UHGV virus genome: UHGV-1517735
DNA length: 20,725 nt
Reading direction: 5' to 3' (one strand)
DNA from: a virus
In this document: positions 2,988-15,248 of the stretch, one piece after another
Layout of the letters: each line of letters opens with the position of its first letter
Position numbering within the stretch: position 1 is the first letter of the stretch
Notes under the pieces: generated by a model
What the model saw: only the letters and a program-made list of their open reading frames with translations
Database searches by the model: none
Told to the model about the DNA's origin: nothing
Translations under genes and position numbers: made by a program

Positions 2988-3869
2988 TTACATAGATGTT
3001 TCGTTTAATTCTTCCCGACGAACGCTGTAAACGTCGGTGGCTTTTGCCAGCAGTTCGTCATCATCTGAAAGTTTTTGTGCAATGTATTTGTAAGCCTTAT
3101 CCAGTTCGGAGACGGTGCTGTAATTCATCGCTGCGCTGGTAAAGGCCATCAGCATTTCTTCTGGATCACGGCTATCCGCTTTACGCGTTTGCTCATCATG
3201 CTTTTTCACTGGTTTAGCGTTGATCAGACTGTTCATTCCCGCAGCAGTAGTCGTTTGCGGAGTAATGTCTCGCTCAACGCGCGGTGCCGTTTCCTGTAAT
3301 TCGTCAGGGGTGTAAACACCGAGAAGCACATCAGGAGCGTGCAGGCGAGCCCATCGTTTCGTGCAAAGATAGGCAAGCTGCTGGCGCGGATCCTGTTCCC
3401 ACAATGGAGAGTTACGCACTCCGGCTTGCGCCATACTGATGGTAAGCTCACGGGGTTCTGCTTCTCCTTTAAGAACTGCTGACACAGTTACCGTCAGATT
3501 CGGTGATTTATCTGTTTTGCCGTTAACATTCGACCAGTCACCGCTCCAGCGATAATTCAGGCGTGTCGCTAGCAGGCTGGAAGAGGATACGACCGCGTTT
3601 ACCAACTGTGCTTCGTAGCCTAACGTTCCGTTTACCACATGCGTTTTCTGCGCCACGGCGAAAGGGTTCATTCCCCACTGTGCCGCCTGCATGGTCACCG
3701 CCAGACAATCGGCAGGTTTGCCTTCAAGATGTTTCGGTACAGTCGCTTTGCTTTGTGACATCAACTCCGCGAAACGCACCAGTTGATTCATGCCCTCCGG
3801 GCTGAAGATTGCCGCAGCAGTACCTACAGTTGCGCCTGGTTGTGATGTGATTGCGATATCATTGCTCAT
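2988..3869 (-). CDS. recT: RecT-family single-strand annealing recombinase
   Basis: 293-aa ORF; RecT-like core; ERDITP segment resembles phage annealing proteins; 4-nt overlap (ATGA) with the upstream exonuclease gene. Confidence 0.8.
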   Translation of the reverse strand: MSNDIAITSQPGATVGTAAAIFSPEGMNQLVRFAELMSQSKATVPKHLEGKPADCLAVTMQAAQWGMNPFAVAQKTHVVNGTLGYEAQLVNAVVSSSSLLATRLNYRWSGDWSNVNGKTDKSPNLTVTVSAVLKGEAEPRELTISMAQAGVRNSPLWEQDPRQQLAYLCTKRWARLHAPDVLLGVYTPDELQETAPRVERDITPQTTTAAGMNSLINAKPVKKHDEQTRKADSRDPEEMLMAFTSAAMNYSTVSELDKAYKYIAQKLSDDDELLAKATDVYSVRREELNETSM

Positions 3870-4985: not shown

Positions 4986-5138
4986 TCAGCCCTCCCATAT
5001 CTCGTTATCGTTGGCCACATCGCGAGCTTCTTTGCTGACGAAAGCCCACTTAATGCCTTCCTGTAAGGTGCGGAACTTCCAGCTCATGAATCCGCATGCA
5101 GTAACGCAGTACCAACCGTTGATGATTTTCCACTGCAT
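4986..5138 (-). CDS. Small hypothetical protein (50 aa), first gene of the leftward operon
   Basis: Hand-translated, below ORF-track cutoff: MQWKIINGWYCVTACGFMSWKFRTLQEGIKWAFVSKEARDVANDNEIWEG; its stop is 2 nt from the next start. Confidence 0.35.
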   Translation of the reverse strand: MQWKIINGWYCVTACGFMSWKFRTLQEGIKWAFVSKEARDVANDNEIWEG

Positions 5139-5291: not shown

Positions 5292-5876
5292 TTATTGTTT
5301 GTTTTTTTCGTTCTGGTTGATGACAAATTCAATGTAACTTTCGATCTTTGCTTTCTCAGTTTCGGGTAACAATGCGTAGCGCGAGCGGTCATAGTTGATG
5401 GTCGCAGGGTCGTGCGGGTGAATCAGTAATTCATAGCCGTGACGCCCGAATGCGGATGCAACATTCTCCAGGGTGGAAATGGAAACGCTGACCTCATTGT
5501 TTAACAGGCGGCTGATTGTCACCTGGGCGACGCCGGATGCGCGGTGAAGTTTTCCCTGTGTTGAAAGGTCGCGGCTTTCGCTCATCCAGCGTTCCAGGTT
5601 GTGAGCCGCCAGCTGACCTATATCGCTCGGGCCGACAGGCTGAAAACCTTCCTGAGAAAGCGAGCGATCGATATCAAGCCAGTTACGTGGTTTATTGGCG
5701 GCAGCTTCAATTTTTCGCGCAACCTGGTCGCCGATAACCTTCTTGCCAAGAGCCCAGCGGTTTACCAGATTTGCCTGAGTTCCAAGTTTTTCTGCCATCC
5801 GCGTCTGAACACCATTGAATTCACGGTCGATCAAGTCGTTGAGATTTTGCCTGCGGACGTCCTGGATACTTTTCAT
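5292..5876 (-). CDS. CI-like prophage repressor with two HTH domains and no LexA-like peptidase domain
   Basis: 194-aa ORF divergent from the Cro-like gene; N-terminal HTH (QTRMAEKLGTQANLVNRWALGKK) and a second HTH-like segment (SGVAQVTISRLLNNEVSVSISTLENVASAFG); no S24 peptidase signature. Confidence 0.8.
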   Translation of the reverse strand: MKSIQDVRRQNLNDLIDREFNGVQTRMAEKLGTQANLVNRWALGKKVIGDQVARKIEAAANKPRNWLDIDRSLSQEGFQPVGPSDIGQLAAHNLERWMSESRDLSTQGKLHRASGVAQVTISRLLNNEVSVSISTLENVASAFGRHGYELLIHPHDPATINYDRSRYALLPETEKAKIESYIEFVINQNEKNKQ

Positions 5877-8212: not shown

Positions 8213-8289
8213 TTACCTGTTAGGTAACAAAATATTATAAACTCTATTGATTTCATGTCTTATGTGGTTTTTAATTACCTCAGAGGTAA
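8213..8289 (+). promoter_or_regulatory. Operator-flanked promoter for the downstream operon
   Basis: TTACC-TGTTA-GGTAA (8213-8227) and TTACC-TCAGA-GGTAA (8275-8289); -35 TTGATT (8247-8252), 17-bp spacer, -10 TTTAAT (8270-8275); same layout as the PL-like promoter. Confidence 0.55.
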
Positions 8290-8292
8290 ATC

Positions 8293-8637
8293 ATGAGAAA
8301 ACAGATACAGGCTCTTGGTCGACTCAAAACAGGCCAGATGAACAAAACTGAATCTGCGTATTGCCAGCACCTTGAGCTGCGTAAACGTGCAGGGGAAATC
8401 GCCTGGTATCGATTCGAGGGTATCAAGCTGCGGTTAGCTGACAACACGTTCTATACGCCAGATTTCGCTGTGATGCTCGCCACCGGAGAGATGGAACTGC
8501 ACGAAGTGAAAGGTTTCTGGACCGACGACGCCAGGGTGAAAACCAAAGTCGCCGCAGATCAGTATCCGTTCCGAATCATCGGGGTAACGGTTAAACCAAA
8601 GAAAGCAGGTGGTGGCTGGAACATCGAAGAGTTCTGA
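8293..8637 (+). CDS. DUF1064-like phage protein (putative PD-(D/E)XK-fold nuclease/resolvase)
   Basis: 114-aa ORF; YTPDFAV...ELHEVKG...KTKVAADQYP pattern as recalled for DUF1064; RBS GAGGT. Confidence 0.7.
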   Translation: MRKQIQALGRLKTGQMNKTESAYCQHLELRKRAGEIAWYRFEGIKLRLADNTFYTPDFAVMLATGEMELHEVKGFWTDDARVKTKVAADQYPFRIIGVTVKPKKAGGGWNIEEF

Positions 8638-11245: not shown

Positions 11246-11519
11246 CCTGCAACTTGCCGTCAAAGGTGAATACTTCGATGCCATGATTCGCGGGGAGAAA
11301 ACGGAAGAGTATCGCCTGTGTAATGACTACTGGAAAAAGCGCCTCGTTAACCGTAAGCATGACCGCCTGATTATCACAAAGGGATATCCGAAGCGCGACG
11401 ATTCCAGCCGCAGAATAGACGTCCCGTATGAAGGGTATGAAATCAAGACAATCACACATCCGCACTTCGGCGATAAACCGGTAAAGGTGTTCGCGATAAA
11501 GGTAAATATTGATGGCTAA
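11238..11519 (+). CDS. ASCH-domain-like protein (93 aa)
   Basis: GTG at 11238 preceded by AGGAGG; LQLAVKGEYFDAMIRGEKTEEYR resembles the ASCH N-terminal strand-turn motif. Confidence 0.6.
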   Translation: MANLQLAVKGEYFDAMIRGEKTEEYRLCNDYWKKRLVNRKHDRLIITKGYPKRDDSSRRIDVPYEGYEIKTITHPHFGDKPVKVFAIKVNIDG

Positions 11520-11850
11520 ATCAGCAGCAGAGCGCAAAGCCGCTCAGAGAGCCAGACAAGCTGCATCTGGTGTGCGTAAACTGGAGATTGTGCTTGATGC
11601 TCAGGAAATTGAAATGCTGGAGCGTAACTGTGCCACGCGTCGCCCCGGGCGTGCGCCTTACGAATTTGGTGAGTATATAGCGTTACTGATCCGCCAGGAT
11701 GATGCACGCGTGCGCGGGCGTATAAAATCGATCAGCAGAAAACGTTGCGGTAAGTGCGGAGAGAGAGTTCCAGTTAATTCATGCCCGTGTAATGGTGACT
11801 CGCAATGCTGGGTGACTAAAGGCTGGCATGAAACGAAATTAATAGTGTGA
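11512..11850 (+). CDS. Cys-rich zinc-finger protein (112 aa), candidate late-gene regulator
   Basis: Basic N-terminal segment; C-terminal CGKCG...CPCNGDSQC; last gene before the terminator and operators upstream of terminase. Confidence 0.6.
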   Translation: MAKSAAERKAAQRARQAASGVRKLEIVLDAQEIEMLERNCATRRPGRAPYEFGEYIALLIRQDDARVRGRIKSISRKRCGKCGERVPVNSCPCNGDSQCWVTKGWHETKLIV

Positions 11851-11858
11851 CATGTCAC
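11847..11858. repeat. Perfect 12-bp palindrome GTGACATGTCAC (copy 1)
   Basis: Overlaps the stop of the 11512-11850 gene; second copy at 14111-14122. Confidence 0.5.
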
Positions 11859-11897
11859 GAGTAGATTATGCATGATGAATTTGATGGTTTTGAATAC

Positions 11898-11925
11898 TGC
11901 CGCCAACTATGGCGGCTTTATTTTG
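11898..11925 (+). terminator. Rho-independent terminator upstream of terminase genes (tR-prime-like position)
   Basis: GCCGCC / GGCGGC stem with AACTAT loop, followed by TTTATTTTG. Confidence 0.65.
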
Positions 11926-11934
11926 CATGGTACT

Positions 11935-11967
11935 ATTACCACAACGGTAACTATTACCACGGTGGTT
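11935..11967. promoter_or_regulatory. Two operator-like palindromes immediately upstream of the terminase small subunit
   Basis: TTACC-ACAAC-GGTAA (11935-11949) and TTACC-ACGGT-GGTTA (11953-11967), the second abutting the start codon. Confidence 0.5.
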
Positions 11968-12564
11968 ATGATGCCTGCTGAACCTAAAACCTATAAACGC
12001 AAATCAACGCAATTTAAGCCACTAACAGCAATGCAGGAGGCTTATTGCCAGTCATACATCAAAACGCCTGAAAACCAGACTCAGGCAGCGATTAATGCAG
12101 GATTCTCCCCAAATACAGCGGCAGTTAAAGCCAGTGTCATGATGCGCGATGAACGCATTCAAAAACGGATTGCCGAGTTGATGGAGGAGCGCAACAAACG
12201 AATGCGCGTCAGTGCTGATTACGTTCTCATGCGCCTGGTGGAGATCGACCAGATGGACGTGATCGACATCCTCAACGACGATGGGAGCCTTAAGCCAATC
12301 CGCGAGTGGCCGAAAATCTGGCGCACTACGCTTAGTGGCTTTGATCTGTCATCGACCATCATGAACATGAACGAGGATTCGATAGAGACAATCCTCAAAA
12401 AAATTAAATGGCCTGACAAGGTGAAGAACCTCGAACTGATTGGTAAGCACGTCGACGTCAACGCATTCAAAGAACGCCTGGATGTTAATGTGAATGTGAC
12501 AATTGCTGATCGCATAGCAGCAGCCAGGAAGCGACTCAAAGAACGTCAGGATGGCAATCAGTGA
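11968..12564 (+). CDS. Terminase small subunit (start uncertain; upstream in-frame ATGs rejected because they span the terminator)
   Basis: HTH-like segment TQAAINAGFSPNTAAVKASVMMRDERIQKRI typical of small terminase subunits; directly upstream of and overlapping the large subunit. Confidence 0.7.
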   Translation: MMPAEPKTYKRKSTQFKPLTAMQEAYCQSYIKTPENQTQAAINAGFSPNTAAVKASVMMRDERIQKRIAELMEERNKRMRVSADYVLMRLVEIDQMDVIDILNDDGSLKPIREWPKIWRTTLSGFDLSSTIMNMNEDSIETILKKIKWPDKVKNLELIGKHVDVNAFKERLDVNVNVTIADRIAAARKRLKERQDGNQ

Positions 12565-14077: not shown

Positions 14078-14106
14078 ATAAAACAAAGCCAGCTCATCGG
14101 CTGGCT
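14078..14106 (-). terminator. Rho-independent terminator downstream of the minus-strand cargo ORF
   Basis: AGCCAGC / GCTGGCT stem with 6-nt loop, followed on the minus strand by TTTGTTTTAT. Confidence 0.5.
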
Positions 14107-14109
14107 GTT

Positions 14110-14123
14110 TGTGACATGTCACA
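14110..14123. repeat. 14-bp palindrome TGTGACATGTCACA (copy 2 of GTGACATGTCAC)
   Basis: Identical 12-bp core to 11847-11858; lies between the cargo ORF stop and its terminator. Confidence 0.5.
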
Positions 14124-14126
14124 GCG

Positions 14127-14546
14127 TTACTTAATGGCATCAAATCCAGCGTTGATGGCTTCCGCAATATTGATGGCACTTGTTTTATCGAATTGCCTAT
14201 TCTGAATAAGCGCCGCATGCAGGCATTGTAACTTCATGTTGTATAAGTGTTCGCTCATGTAATCATTATCACTTTTTGTTTTAGCGCAAACAGAGCGAGA
14301 AATATCAAACACATCGCCTTTTTCCATTTCAGAACGTTGTGCTGTTATCCAGTCATGGAACGTAACGCTAGTACCATGGTCTTCGCTAAGAGTTAACCCG
14401 GCCAGTCCCTCACTCTGAATTACTTCGTAATGCATTTCATTACCAGCAAAAACGCCATAAAAAATGCAGTCTTCAGCCTGAACGATACGAGAATATTTTA
14501 ATGGCCATTCATTTAGATACTTAGCCAACATATCAATTGTCTTCAT
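14127..14546 (-). CDS. Hypothetical cargo/moron protein (139 aa), opposite strand to flanking late genes
   Basis: ORF with RBS AAGGTGA; AT-rich codon usage unlike neighbours; own terminator; no domain recognised, no predicted TM segment. Confidence 0.7.
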   Translation of the reverse strand: MKTIDMLAKYLNEWPLKYSRIVQAEDCIFYGVFAGNEMHYEVIQSEGLAGLTLSEDHGTSVTFHDWITAQRSEMEKGDVFDISRSVCAKTKSDNDYMSEHLYNMKLQCLHAALIQNRQFDKTSAINIAEAINAGFDAIK

Positions 14547-15158: not shown

Positions 15159-15248
15159 TAATTTGTGCGTTAAATGTCAACTACCTACGATAAATAAATC
15201 ATATGTGGTTAAATTGGTAATAATTTAATTGCGTACGGAGTCATTGAT

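Follow-up and report, generated by a model that had tools for sequence, protein, structure and literature searches.

In phage lambda, the gene immediately preceding the late genes encodes a small regulator, and an intrinsic terminator comes after it, an arrangement known as Q/qut/PR'/tR'. In mycobacteriophage L5, with gp71 and its stoperators, and in P1, with C1, one repressor acts at sites scattered genome-wide in short intergenic regions. For the epsilon15-like podoviruses, we know of no established account of how the late and packaging genes are switched on. The repressor of the related phage SPC32H, Rep, acts as a tetramer in binding palindromic sites (PMC9638917), and the matS sites of Escherichia coli follow the 13-bp consensus GTGAC[AG]N[TC]GTCAC (PMC3603311), a sequence that prophages avoid. 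The present analysis deals with one locus of UHGV virus genome UHGV-1517735, of which a stretch of 20,725 nucleotides was analysed (the window, meaning this stretch as a whole): the gene at 11512-11850, which encodes a small protein with a cysteine cluster, a palindrome at its stop codon, and the terminator and operators that separate it from terS, the gene for the terminase small subunit.

A first-pass annotation of this locus, made from the sequence alone, had proposed a parallel with the lambdoid Q/tR' late switch. The evidence gathered here leads elsewhere. The protein is modelled as a DNA-binding ribbon-helix-helix (RHH) core joined to a zinc module, and it is likely, judging from the conserved linkage of gene and site, that it binds the palindrome GTGAC-NN-GTCAC, with which it makes up a widespread and apparently undescribed module. 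The terminator and operators next to terS are ordinary for the phage group and already annotated in epsilon15. Thus, the Q analogy is removed, and the terminase genes are placed behind the prophage repressor's own operators.

About 1.4 kb around the locus show 97% nucleotide identity to E. coli O157 typing phages 9/10 and PAS61; over the same 1.4 kb, TL-2011b and phiV10 are close kin, and epsilon15, SPN1S and Tyrion are more distant. By this similarity, the window is classed as the prophage of a Uetakevirus, that is, an epsilon15/phiV10-like temperate podovirus. In the phiV10 and epsilon15 records, the homologue of the 11512-11850 gene stands last and terS first. The locus is therefore the junction between the early-right and packaging operons, and its gene is the final early-right gene, as had been noted before. 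Uetakevirus prophages are common, the 456-bp region being found in 637 of 5426 complete E. coli genomes.

A ribbon-helix-helix protein with a zinc module

The basic protein with a Cys cluster described in the first-pass annotation is present, with an isoelectric point of 9.78, an excess of Lys and Arg (23) over Asp and Glu (13), and Cys residues at positions 40, 79, 82, 91, 93 and 99. An exhaustive search among 1.8 billion representatives found only 154 clusters matching it, 59 of which were taken into the homologue alignment and Pfam scan. In this alignment, C79, C82 and C99 are invariant or nearly so, and a fourth Cys lies at about 90-93, some ten residues past C82. Also nearly invariant are R8 and R13 in the basic N-terminus, E54 and L59 in the core, and P87 and G95.

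The protein is assigned to PHROG 536, whose label is 'transcriptional regulator'. Scans of the protein against Pfam, NCBIfam and PADLOC gave nothing above threshold, neither Q nor Ogr nor another named regulator, and the Pfam scan of the 59 homologues, at E values up to 1, revealed no Q family, no MatP and no zf-dskA_traR. A Foldseek comparison of the structural model with the PDB gave no significant match, and no Q structure came out of the PDB profile search or the fold searches; in the profile search, the C-terminal half weakly matches TraR and YbiI (E 0.02-0.04). The remote-homology comparison with Q-family antiterminators that had been suggested for this protein thus yielded no match by Pfam scans, PDB profiles or folds.

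The AlphaFold (AF2) model, with a predicted local distance difference test score (pLDDT) of 93, consists of a helix (residues 5-19), an extended segment (20-29), two helices (30-42 and 52-74), the Cys region and a last helix (100-108). The central part of the model has the strand-helix-helix fold of the RHH (CopG/Arc/MetJ) proteins, which dimerise through the strand. The protein is thus predicted to be a DNA binder of dimeric type, made up of a basic N-terminal helix, an RHH core and, at the C-terminus, a Cys zinc module. By sequence and fold, it is no Q-type antiterminator.

A palindrome linked to the gene

The palindrome that overlaps the stop codon (Table 1) belongs to a motif, GTGAC-NN-GTCAC, which is found at or within ~25 bp of the stop of homologues in Uetakeviruses, in a large group of viral contigs carrying cox/xis and int, in ZF40, in N15 and in Chlobot, and which persists at this place in homologues with only ~32% protein identity. 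It lies between -12 and +40 of the stop in 38 of the 58 protein clusters and within 160 bp in 2 more; in several of the remaining clusters, it follows an inserted open reading frame (ORF). Altogether, the 320 kb of homologue loci hold 57 occurrences, against 0.3 expected. The form present in the cox/int group is often CCGTGACNNGTCACGG, and that of N15 is GTGACTGGTCAC.

When an upstream TAA serves as the stop, the palindrome is still kept a few bases downstream, which shows that it is neither a coding constraint nor a by-product of one. Its stem is invariant and only the two central bases vary, as would be expected of a DNA site for a symmetric dimer and not of an RNA stem.

Exactly three exact copies per genome, with ~0.04 expected, are carried by phiV10, epsilon15, ZF40, Vibrio phage K308 and N15 (L185, L197, L318, L319 and L320, respectively, among the loci compared). 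In phiV10 and epsilon15, one copy follows the RHH-zinc gene, another follows terL and the third lies where the long structural operon ends, and the order along transcription at all three sites is gene 3' end, palindrome, intrinsic terminator. The copy after terL is conserved in these two phages and in seven divergent prophages, L174, L171, L161, L008, L177, L169 and L176. The N15 copies are located at 28550, 33237 and 39269, one being inside repA and another between a gene end and a terminator. Those of ZF40 are at 5125, 7622 and 14944, and two of them flank the immunity region inside genes of the early leftward and rightward operons. Those of K308 are at 21342, 33227 and 35942, one of them 19 bp before terS. 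The central dinucleotide is uniform within phiV10, epsilon15, ZF40 and N15, and reads AC, AC and GC in K308; between lineages it differs (AT, TG/CA, AC). No mention of the palindrome was found in the literature searched, and it carries no annotation in the epsilon15, phiV10 and N15 records.

On the circular map, the first and third copies of phiV10 (39100/1 and 19493; 19.5 of 39.1 kb) lie nearly opposite each other, as do those of epsilon15 (39612 and 19517; 20.1 of 39.7 kb). This placement is absent in N15, ZF40 and K308, and may be a coincidence.

The neighbourhood of the homologues varies. In ZF40, the homologue (gp22) lies upstream of NinB and of gp25, annotated as Q-like; in N15, it (gp46) lies downstream of gp40, annotated as 'late transcription activator'. 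It follows gpA in a P2-like Yersinia phage, occurs also in Vibrio phages, precedes xis-int in Chlobot and, in the large group of viral contigs, is followed by cox/xis and int and not by packaging genes. The listed hosts are Escherichia, Salmonella, Klebsiella, Yersinia, Pectobacterium, Vibrio and Aeromonas. In viral contigs, nothing was obtained with two distant queries. What the homologues share is a place towards the distal end of their early operon, not packaging genes behind them, and this variety argues against a general role as a late switch.

Six independent contigs of the cox/int-linked group (L095, L102, L115, L120, L141 and L142) end 242-243 bp past the homologue stop, at a point adjoining a cox-like gene and an integrase. 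This shared end probably marks a prophage boundary or att site and not an end produced by packaging.

The repressor operators before terS

A repeat finder detects the direct repeats ACTATTACCAC, exact at 11932 and 11950 and 18 bp apart, but the pair is better read as two 15-bp palindromes, TTACC-N5-GGTAA, at 11936 and 11954. These are the two operator palindromes that had been reported as abutting the terS start, and they share their palindrome with the flanks of the repressor gene, which would make them operators of the epsilon15 type. The 20.7-kb window has 7 exact copies of TTACC-N5-GGTAA; besides the sites before terS and around the repressor gene, the palindrome occurs at 8213/8275, 6317 and 15144. 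The complete genome of phiV10 carries 8 exact operators, where 0.04 would be expected, and 14 if one mismatch is allowed, where 1.1 would be expected; every one of them is intergenic. They are found upstream of terS, the head operon, the antirepressor, the tail fibre, the lysis genes, int, p42 and p45, and on both sides of the repressor gene. The operator map of epsilon15 is the same, and its GenBank record, which also annotates a terminator after gp49, includes a site 20 bp before terS among those labelled 'protein_bind: repressor'. In the divergent relatives L172, L174, L177 and L181, the half-sites before terS are kept and the five central bases are changed, as expected for an operator.

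It is presumably the repressor encoded at 5292-5876 that binds these operators, which also lie on both sides of its gene. The tetrameric state of the SPC32H Rep fits paired operators. In the repressor of the window, helix-turn-helix (HTH) matches are found at residues 21-61 and 104-147, in agreement with the phiV10 note 'two helix-turn-helix motifs'. The start-to-start spacing within operator pairs is 62 bp (5158/5220 and 8213/8275), 48 bp (5932/5980, on the repressor/cro side) or 18 bp (11936/11954), and the 62-bp spacing recurs in phiV10 and epsilon15.

The succession of terminator, operator and gene is found at p42 and p45 too and is thus not peculiar to terS; in phiV10 and epsilon15, the head, tail-fibre, lysis and int units likewise have operators in front of them. 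Upstream of the DUF1064 gene (window 8293-8637; phiV10 p45), an operator overlaps the promoter TTGATT, 17 bp, TTTAAT. From the terminator to terS, no promoter passes a sigma-70 consensus scan; the only possible candidate, put forward by analogy with the other promoters of the phage that operators overlap, is a weak terS promoter lying under the operators, TTGCAT, 17 bp, GGTAAC.

A further element, CATATGTGGTT(T), also conserved, is situated 30-45 bp past an operator and directly before the -10 region. It was found at 15200-15210 and 8259-8269 in the window, at 3308, 20921, 24739 and 35116 in phiV10, and at 2988, 19940, 24751 and 35953 in epsilon15. It precedes the head, tail-spike and lysis operons, which have poor -35 hexamers, and the DUF1064/RuvC early unit. 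This element is a candidate for a phage-specific promoter or late-activator element, and a more likely place for the real late switch.

The terminator and the moron slot

The hairpin at 11899-11925, rich in G+C, ending the early-right operon and followed by a T-tract, is an intrinsic terminator, and its strength had been correctly appreciated: the stem has 7 pairs, 6 of them G-C, with the loop ACTA, and the RNA fold of -16.4 kcal/mol (z = -3.75) was equalled in 0 of 200 shuffles. In other lineages, unrelated terminators occupy the same position. The first-pass coordinates of all these features were right within 1-2 bases.

Among close relatives, the spacer has a 122-bp or a 308-bp form. The longer one carries a moron ORF of 70 amino acids (MPKIRYDLEDMRDNSANFPKEV...YDEFDGL), for example at 3357-3569 of L019; in the shorter one, to which the window belongs, only M-x-DEFDGF remains. 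A 1-nt deletion (GATGGTTTTGA, where most relatives have GATGGNTTTTGA) removes the stop of this mini-ORF, and the resulting ORF, 11872-12564, begins with the ATG at 11872 and reads across the terminator and both operators into terS, in the same frame; the deletion is present in only 3 of ~80 close relatives (the window, L038 and L085). In L171, L161 and L008, the slot is taken by a UmuD-like gene that has a TTGACT promoter of its own and a LexA box, and in these variants the terminator has been lost and the operators are retained. The stretch between palindrome and operators is therefore a moron slot with two invariant parts, the palindrome upstream and the operators downstream.

When known RNAs were sought in 11400-12200, only a sub-threshold match was obtained. 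It is a full-length Rfam match to rseX, an Hfq-binding small RNA, at 11839-11923 (+), with 29.6 bits for a gathering value of 50 and E 0.06-0.15. The match is driven mainly by a similar terminator hairpin and is probably not meaningful; a short RNA reaching from the palindrome region to the terminator is conceivable.

The phiV10 and SPN1S records begin at the early/packaging junction, and a physical genome end was considered at this point. It was rejected, as these were judged to be arbitrary record starts, and the large terminase is P1 PacB-like. The epsilon15 genome is reportedly termed 'nonredundant' in the paper describing it.

Table 1. Positions of the genes and DNA elements discussed, in window coordinates
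Feature	Position	Strand	Remarks
Last gene of the early-right operon	11512-11850	+	112 amino acids; PHROG 536; homologous to epsilon15 gp49, phiV10 p55 and N15 gp46
Perfect 12-bp palindrome GTGACATGTCAC	11847-11858		Overlaps the stop codon of the 11512-11850 gene; missed in the first-pass annotation
Mini-ORF remnant (M-H-DEFDGF) of the 70-amino-acid moron ORF	11872-11897	+	Stop lost; fused in frame to terS
Intrinsic terminator ending the early-right operon	11899-11925	+	Stem 11899-11916, then TTTATTTT; the epsilon15 and phiV10 records annotate a terminator here
Operator TTACCACAACGGTAA	11936-11950		Exact TTACC-N5-GGTAA; homologous epsilon15 site 12-27 annotated 'protein_bind: repressor'
Operator TTACCACGGTGGTTA	11954-11968		One mismatch; overlaps terS Shine-Dalgarno and ATG
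terS, terminase small subunit	11968-12564	+	PF03592, E 1e-29; start 11968/11971
Hairpin terminator	14087-14106	-	Between terL and the convergent moron gene 14127-14546; good T-tract on the - strand only
Second copy of GTGACATGTCAC	14111-14122		Between the 3' end of the (-) gene 14127-14546 and that gene's terminator
Prophage repressor (HTH_3)	5292-5876	-	Operators 5932, 5980 (OR side) and 5158, 5220 (OL side)

Proposed mechanism and competing explanations

The sequence features, the fold class, the linkage of gene and palindrome and the genome-wide pattern of operators are shown here; binding of the palindrome by the protein, its effect there and the route by which terS is transcribed are inferred. 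The resulting account, that of an operon junction with an RHH-zinc DNA binder at the palindromes and a terS silenced by Rep, is on balance slightly favoured. Late in the early phase, the protein would bind the palindromes and, once bound, would govern the crossing of the operon boundary, as a roadblock, as an insulator or through some other modulation of the adjacent terminator; its zinc domain might link palindrome sites. The terminator at 11899-11925 stops early transcription. In the lysogen, Rep bound to the two operators, which cover the weak promoter and the terS ribosome-binding site, would silence the terminase genes whatever the transcription arriving from upstream. After induction, terS-terL would be expressed owing to the loss of the repressor together with leak-through at the terminator and/or the weak promoter, and the low expression so obtained would suit a catalytic enzyme.

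The first-pass annotation had concluded that late expression requires either antitermination through the terminator or derepression at the operators. The second part stands: the palindromes before terS have the motif of the immunity-region operators, which makes derepression at 11935-11967 sensible for terS expression. The first part does not hold in general, since the terminator is absent in the relatives carrying the UmuD-like moron and antitermination can be no general requirement.

Several observations weigh against the favoured account. Two of the three ZF40 copies lie inside coding regions and one N15 copy lies inside repA, so that the pattern of operon end and terminator does not extend to the family as a whole. 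Roughly one in four clusters has no palindrome near the gene. A reverse search with CGTGACATGTCACG found a homologue within the fetched stretch in only 20 of 80 viral stretches, these stretches being short and a few hundred chance 14-mer occurrences being expected at that collection size. Finally, the proposed terS promoter fails the consensus scan.

A wider proposal can be made, namely that the RHH-zinc protein and GTGAC-NN-GTCAC constitute an unrecognised phage module, a counterpart of MatP/matS acting as a site-specific boundary system in at least five unrelated temperate lineages. It could take two forms, terminator-coupled insulators that depend on the protein, or DNA bridging with interference with MatP/SMC; even with both forms counted together, it is possible but rather doubtful. 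If true, a boundary or DNA-organising module of this kind would be a new regulatory layer common to lambdoid, N15-like, P2-like, epsilon15-like and Vibrio phages.

The best surviving alternative to the favoured account is that the protein and its three palindromes form a DNA organiser like MatP/matS with no direct role in transcription, whose action would be to bridge or condense the DNA of the phage or to interfere with MatP, MukBEF or other SMC complexes of the host. All the hosts listed above fall in the bacterial group possessing MatP. Exactly three sites per genome are found in five unrelated phage types, some of them intragenic, and an orthogonal phage site would fit the avoidance of the true 13-bp matS by prophages. 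The half-sites are identical to those of matS (PMC3603311). However, there is no significant homology to MatP (hhalign E 0.076, probability <1%; no Pfam MatP match), neither the four-helix bundle nor the coiled coil of MatP is present in the protein, the spacer has 2 bp instead of 3 bp, and the tight adjacency to terminators in Uetakeviruses is left unexplained. Taking all this into account, an organiser of this kind is unlikely.

It is considerably less probable that, as first proposed, the zinc protein is a functional analogue of lambda Q, which would load onto RNA polymerase near its DNA site and, as the late switch, allow read-through of the 11899-11925 terminator into terS. This would agree with the gene being the last early one in every Uetakevirus seen, where no Q homologue is annotated, and with the location of the putative DNA site 22-50 bp upstream of the terminator at three operon ends. 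The zinc region weakly matches the RNA-polymerase-binding TraR and YbiI (E 0.02), and the palindrome could serve as the -35 of a weak promoter-like match, GTGACA, 18 bp, CATGAT, which agrees at 9 of 12 positions and is at chance level (2 found, 2.4 expected). But the 308-bp variant, L174 and L181 do not preserve this match, the Cys spacing is unlike the DksA/TraR finger, and there is no Q-family homology. Moreover, ZF40 and N15 have a member of the family beside their annotated late regulators, another member is found in a P2-like phage, the UmuD-moron variants are without the terminator, and the other late units have their own operator and CATATGTGGTT and no adjacent palindrome. Together with the RHH and zinc model, these points led us to abandon the lambdoid parallel.

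That the palindrome is not the protein's DNA site, but a mosaic-boundary or recombination sequence, or a hairpin in the mRNA that governs how stable it is or how the next gene is translated, the arginine-rich N-terminus perhaps being involved, would account for the break of similarity between relatives exactly at the palindrome, with morons inserted right after it, for its abutting the next gene's Shine-Dalgarno in many phages and for the N-terminal RKxxQRxR, which we take to resemble the arginine-rich motifs of N proteins, yet it is very improbable, as an invariant stem with a variable centre is the pattern of DNA half-sites and not of a compensatory RNA stem, the perfect two-fold symmetry agrees with an RHH protein that is dimeric, copies are found on both strands and also within genes, and conservation down to ~32% protein identity needs selection beyond recombination history.

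Comparison with known systems

The locus shares with lambda Q/qut/PR'/tR' the succession of a small regulator, encoded last before the late genes, and an intrinsic terminator. In contrast to lambda, the regulator is an RHH-zinc protein with no relation to Q in sequence or fold, there is no conserved promoter bearing a Q-binding element, and terminator and operators recur at units that are not late.

As small Cys4 zinc proteins of phages and plasmids that control transcription, the late activators P2 Ogr/P4 Delta, which are zinc-finger proteins, and DksA/TraR resemble the protein encoded at 11512-11850. Its membership of the DksA/TraR family was considered and rejected because of the Cys spacing (C79-x2-C82...C~91...C99) and the basic N-terminus. 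The TraR finger is CxxC-N17-CxxC, whereas that of the phage protein is CxxC-N8/9-C-N6/8-C; unlike in DksA/TraR, where an acidic-tipped helix or coiled coil enters the RNA polymerase secondary channel, the N-terminus is strongly basic, and an RHH domain is present.

With MatP/matS, the phage system has in common an RHH core, GTGAC/GTCAC half-sites, several dispersed sites per replicon and, apparently, the host range. The phage site, of 12 bp with a 2-bp spacer, is not a matS site, of 13 bp with a 3-bp spacer; copies of the latter are missing from ZF40 and N15, and a single one (GTGACACCGTCAC) is found in K308. The phage protein has a Cys zinc module where MatP has a four-helix bundle and a coiled coil, and neither Pfam nor hhalign nor the architecture of the model places it in the MatP family. 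As homology is not demonstrable and the architecture differs, the resemblance to MatP would lie in a possible mode of action and not in membership.

The L5 and P1 systems are similar in that the sites of the Uetakevirus repressor also stand before late genes, which would be silenced directly, beyond the lack of an activator. They differ in that the Uetakevirus sites are symmetric palindromes, mostly located at promoters after terminators, and that their role as roadblocks is putative.

The closest correspondence is with the Rep operators of epsilon15 and SPC32H. The sites annotated in epsilon15 have the same (A)TTACC-N5-GGTAA(T) palindrome, including a site just before terS, and the repressor of the window is of the same HTH type. 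No essential difference separates the operators of the window from those of epsilon15, and the pair before terS is distinguished by being unusually close, at 18 bp instead of 48 or 62.

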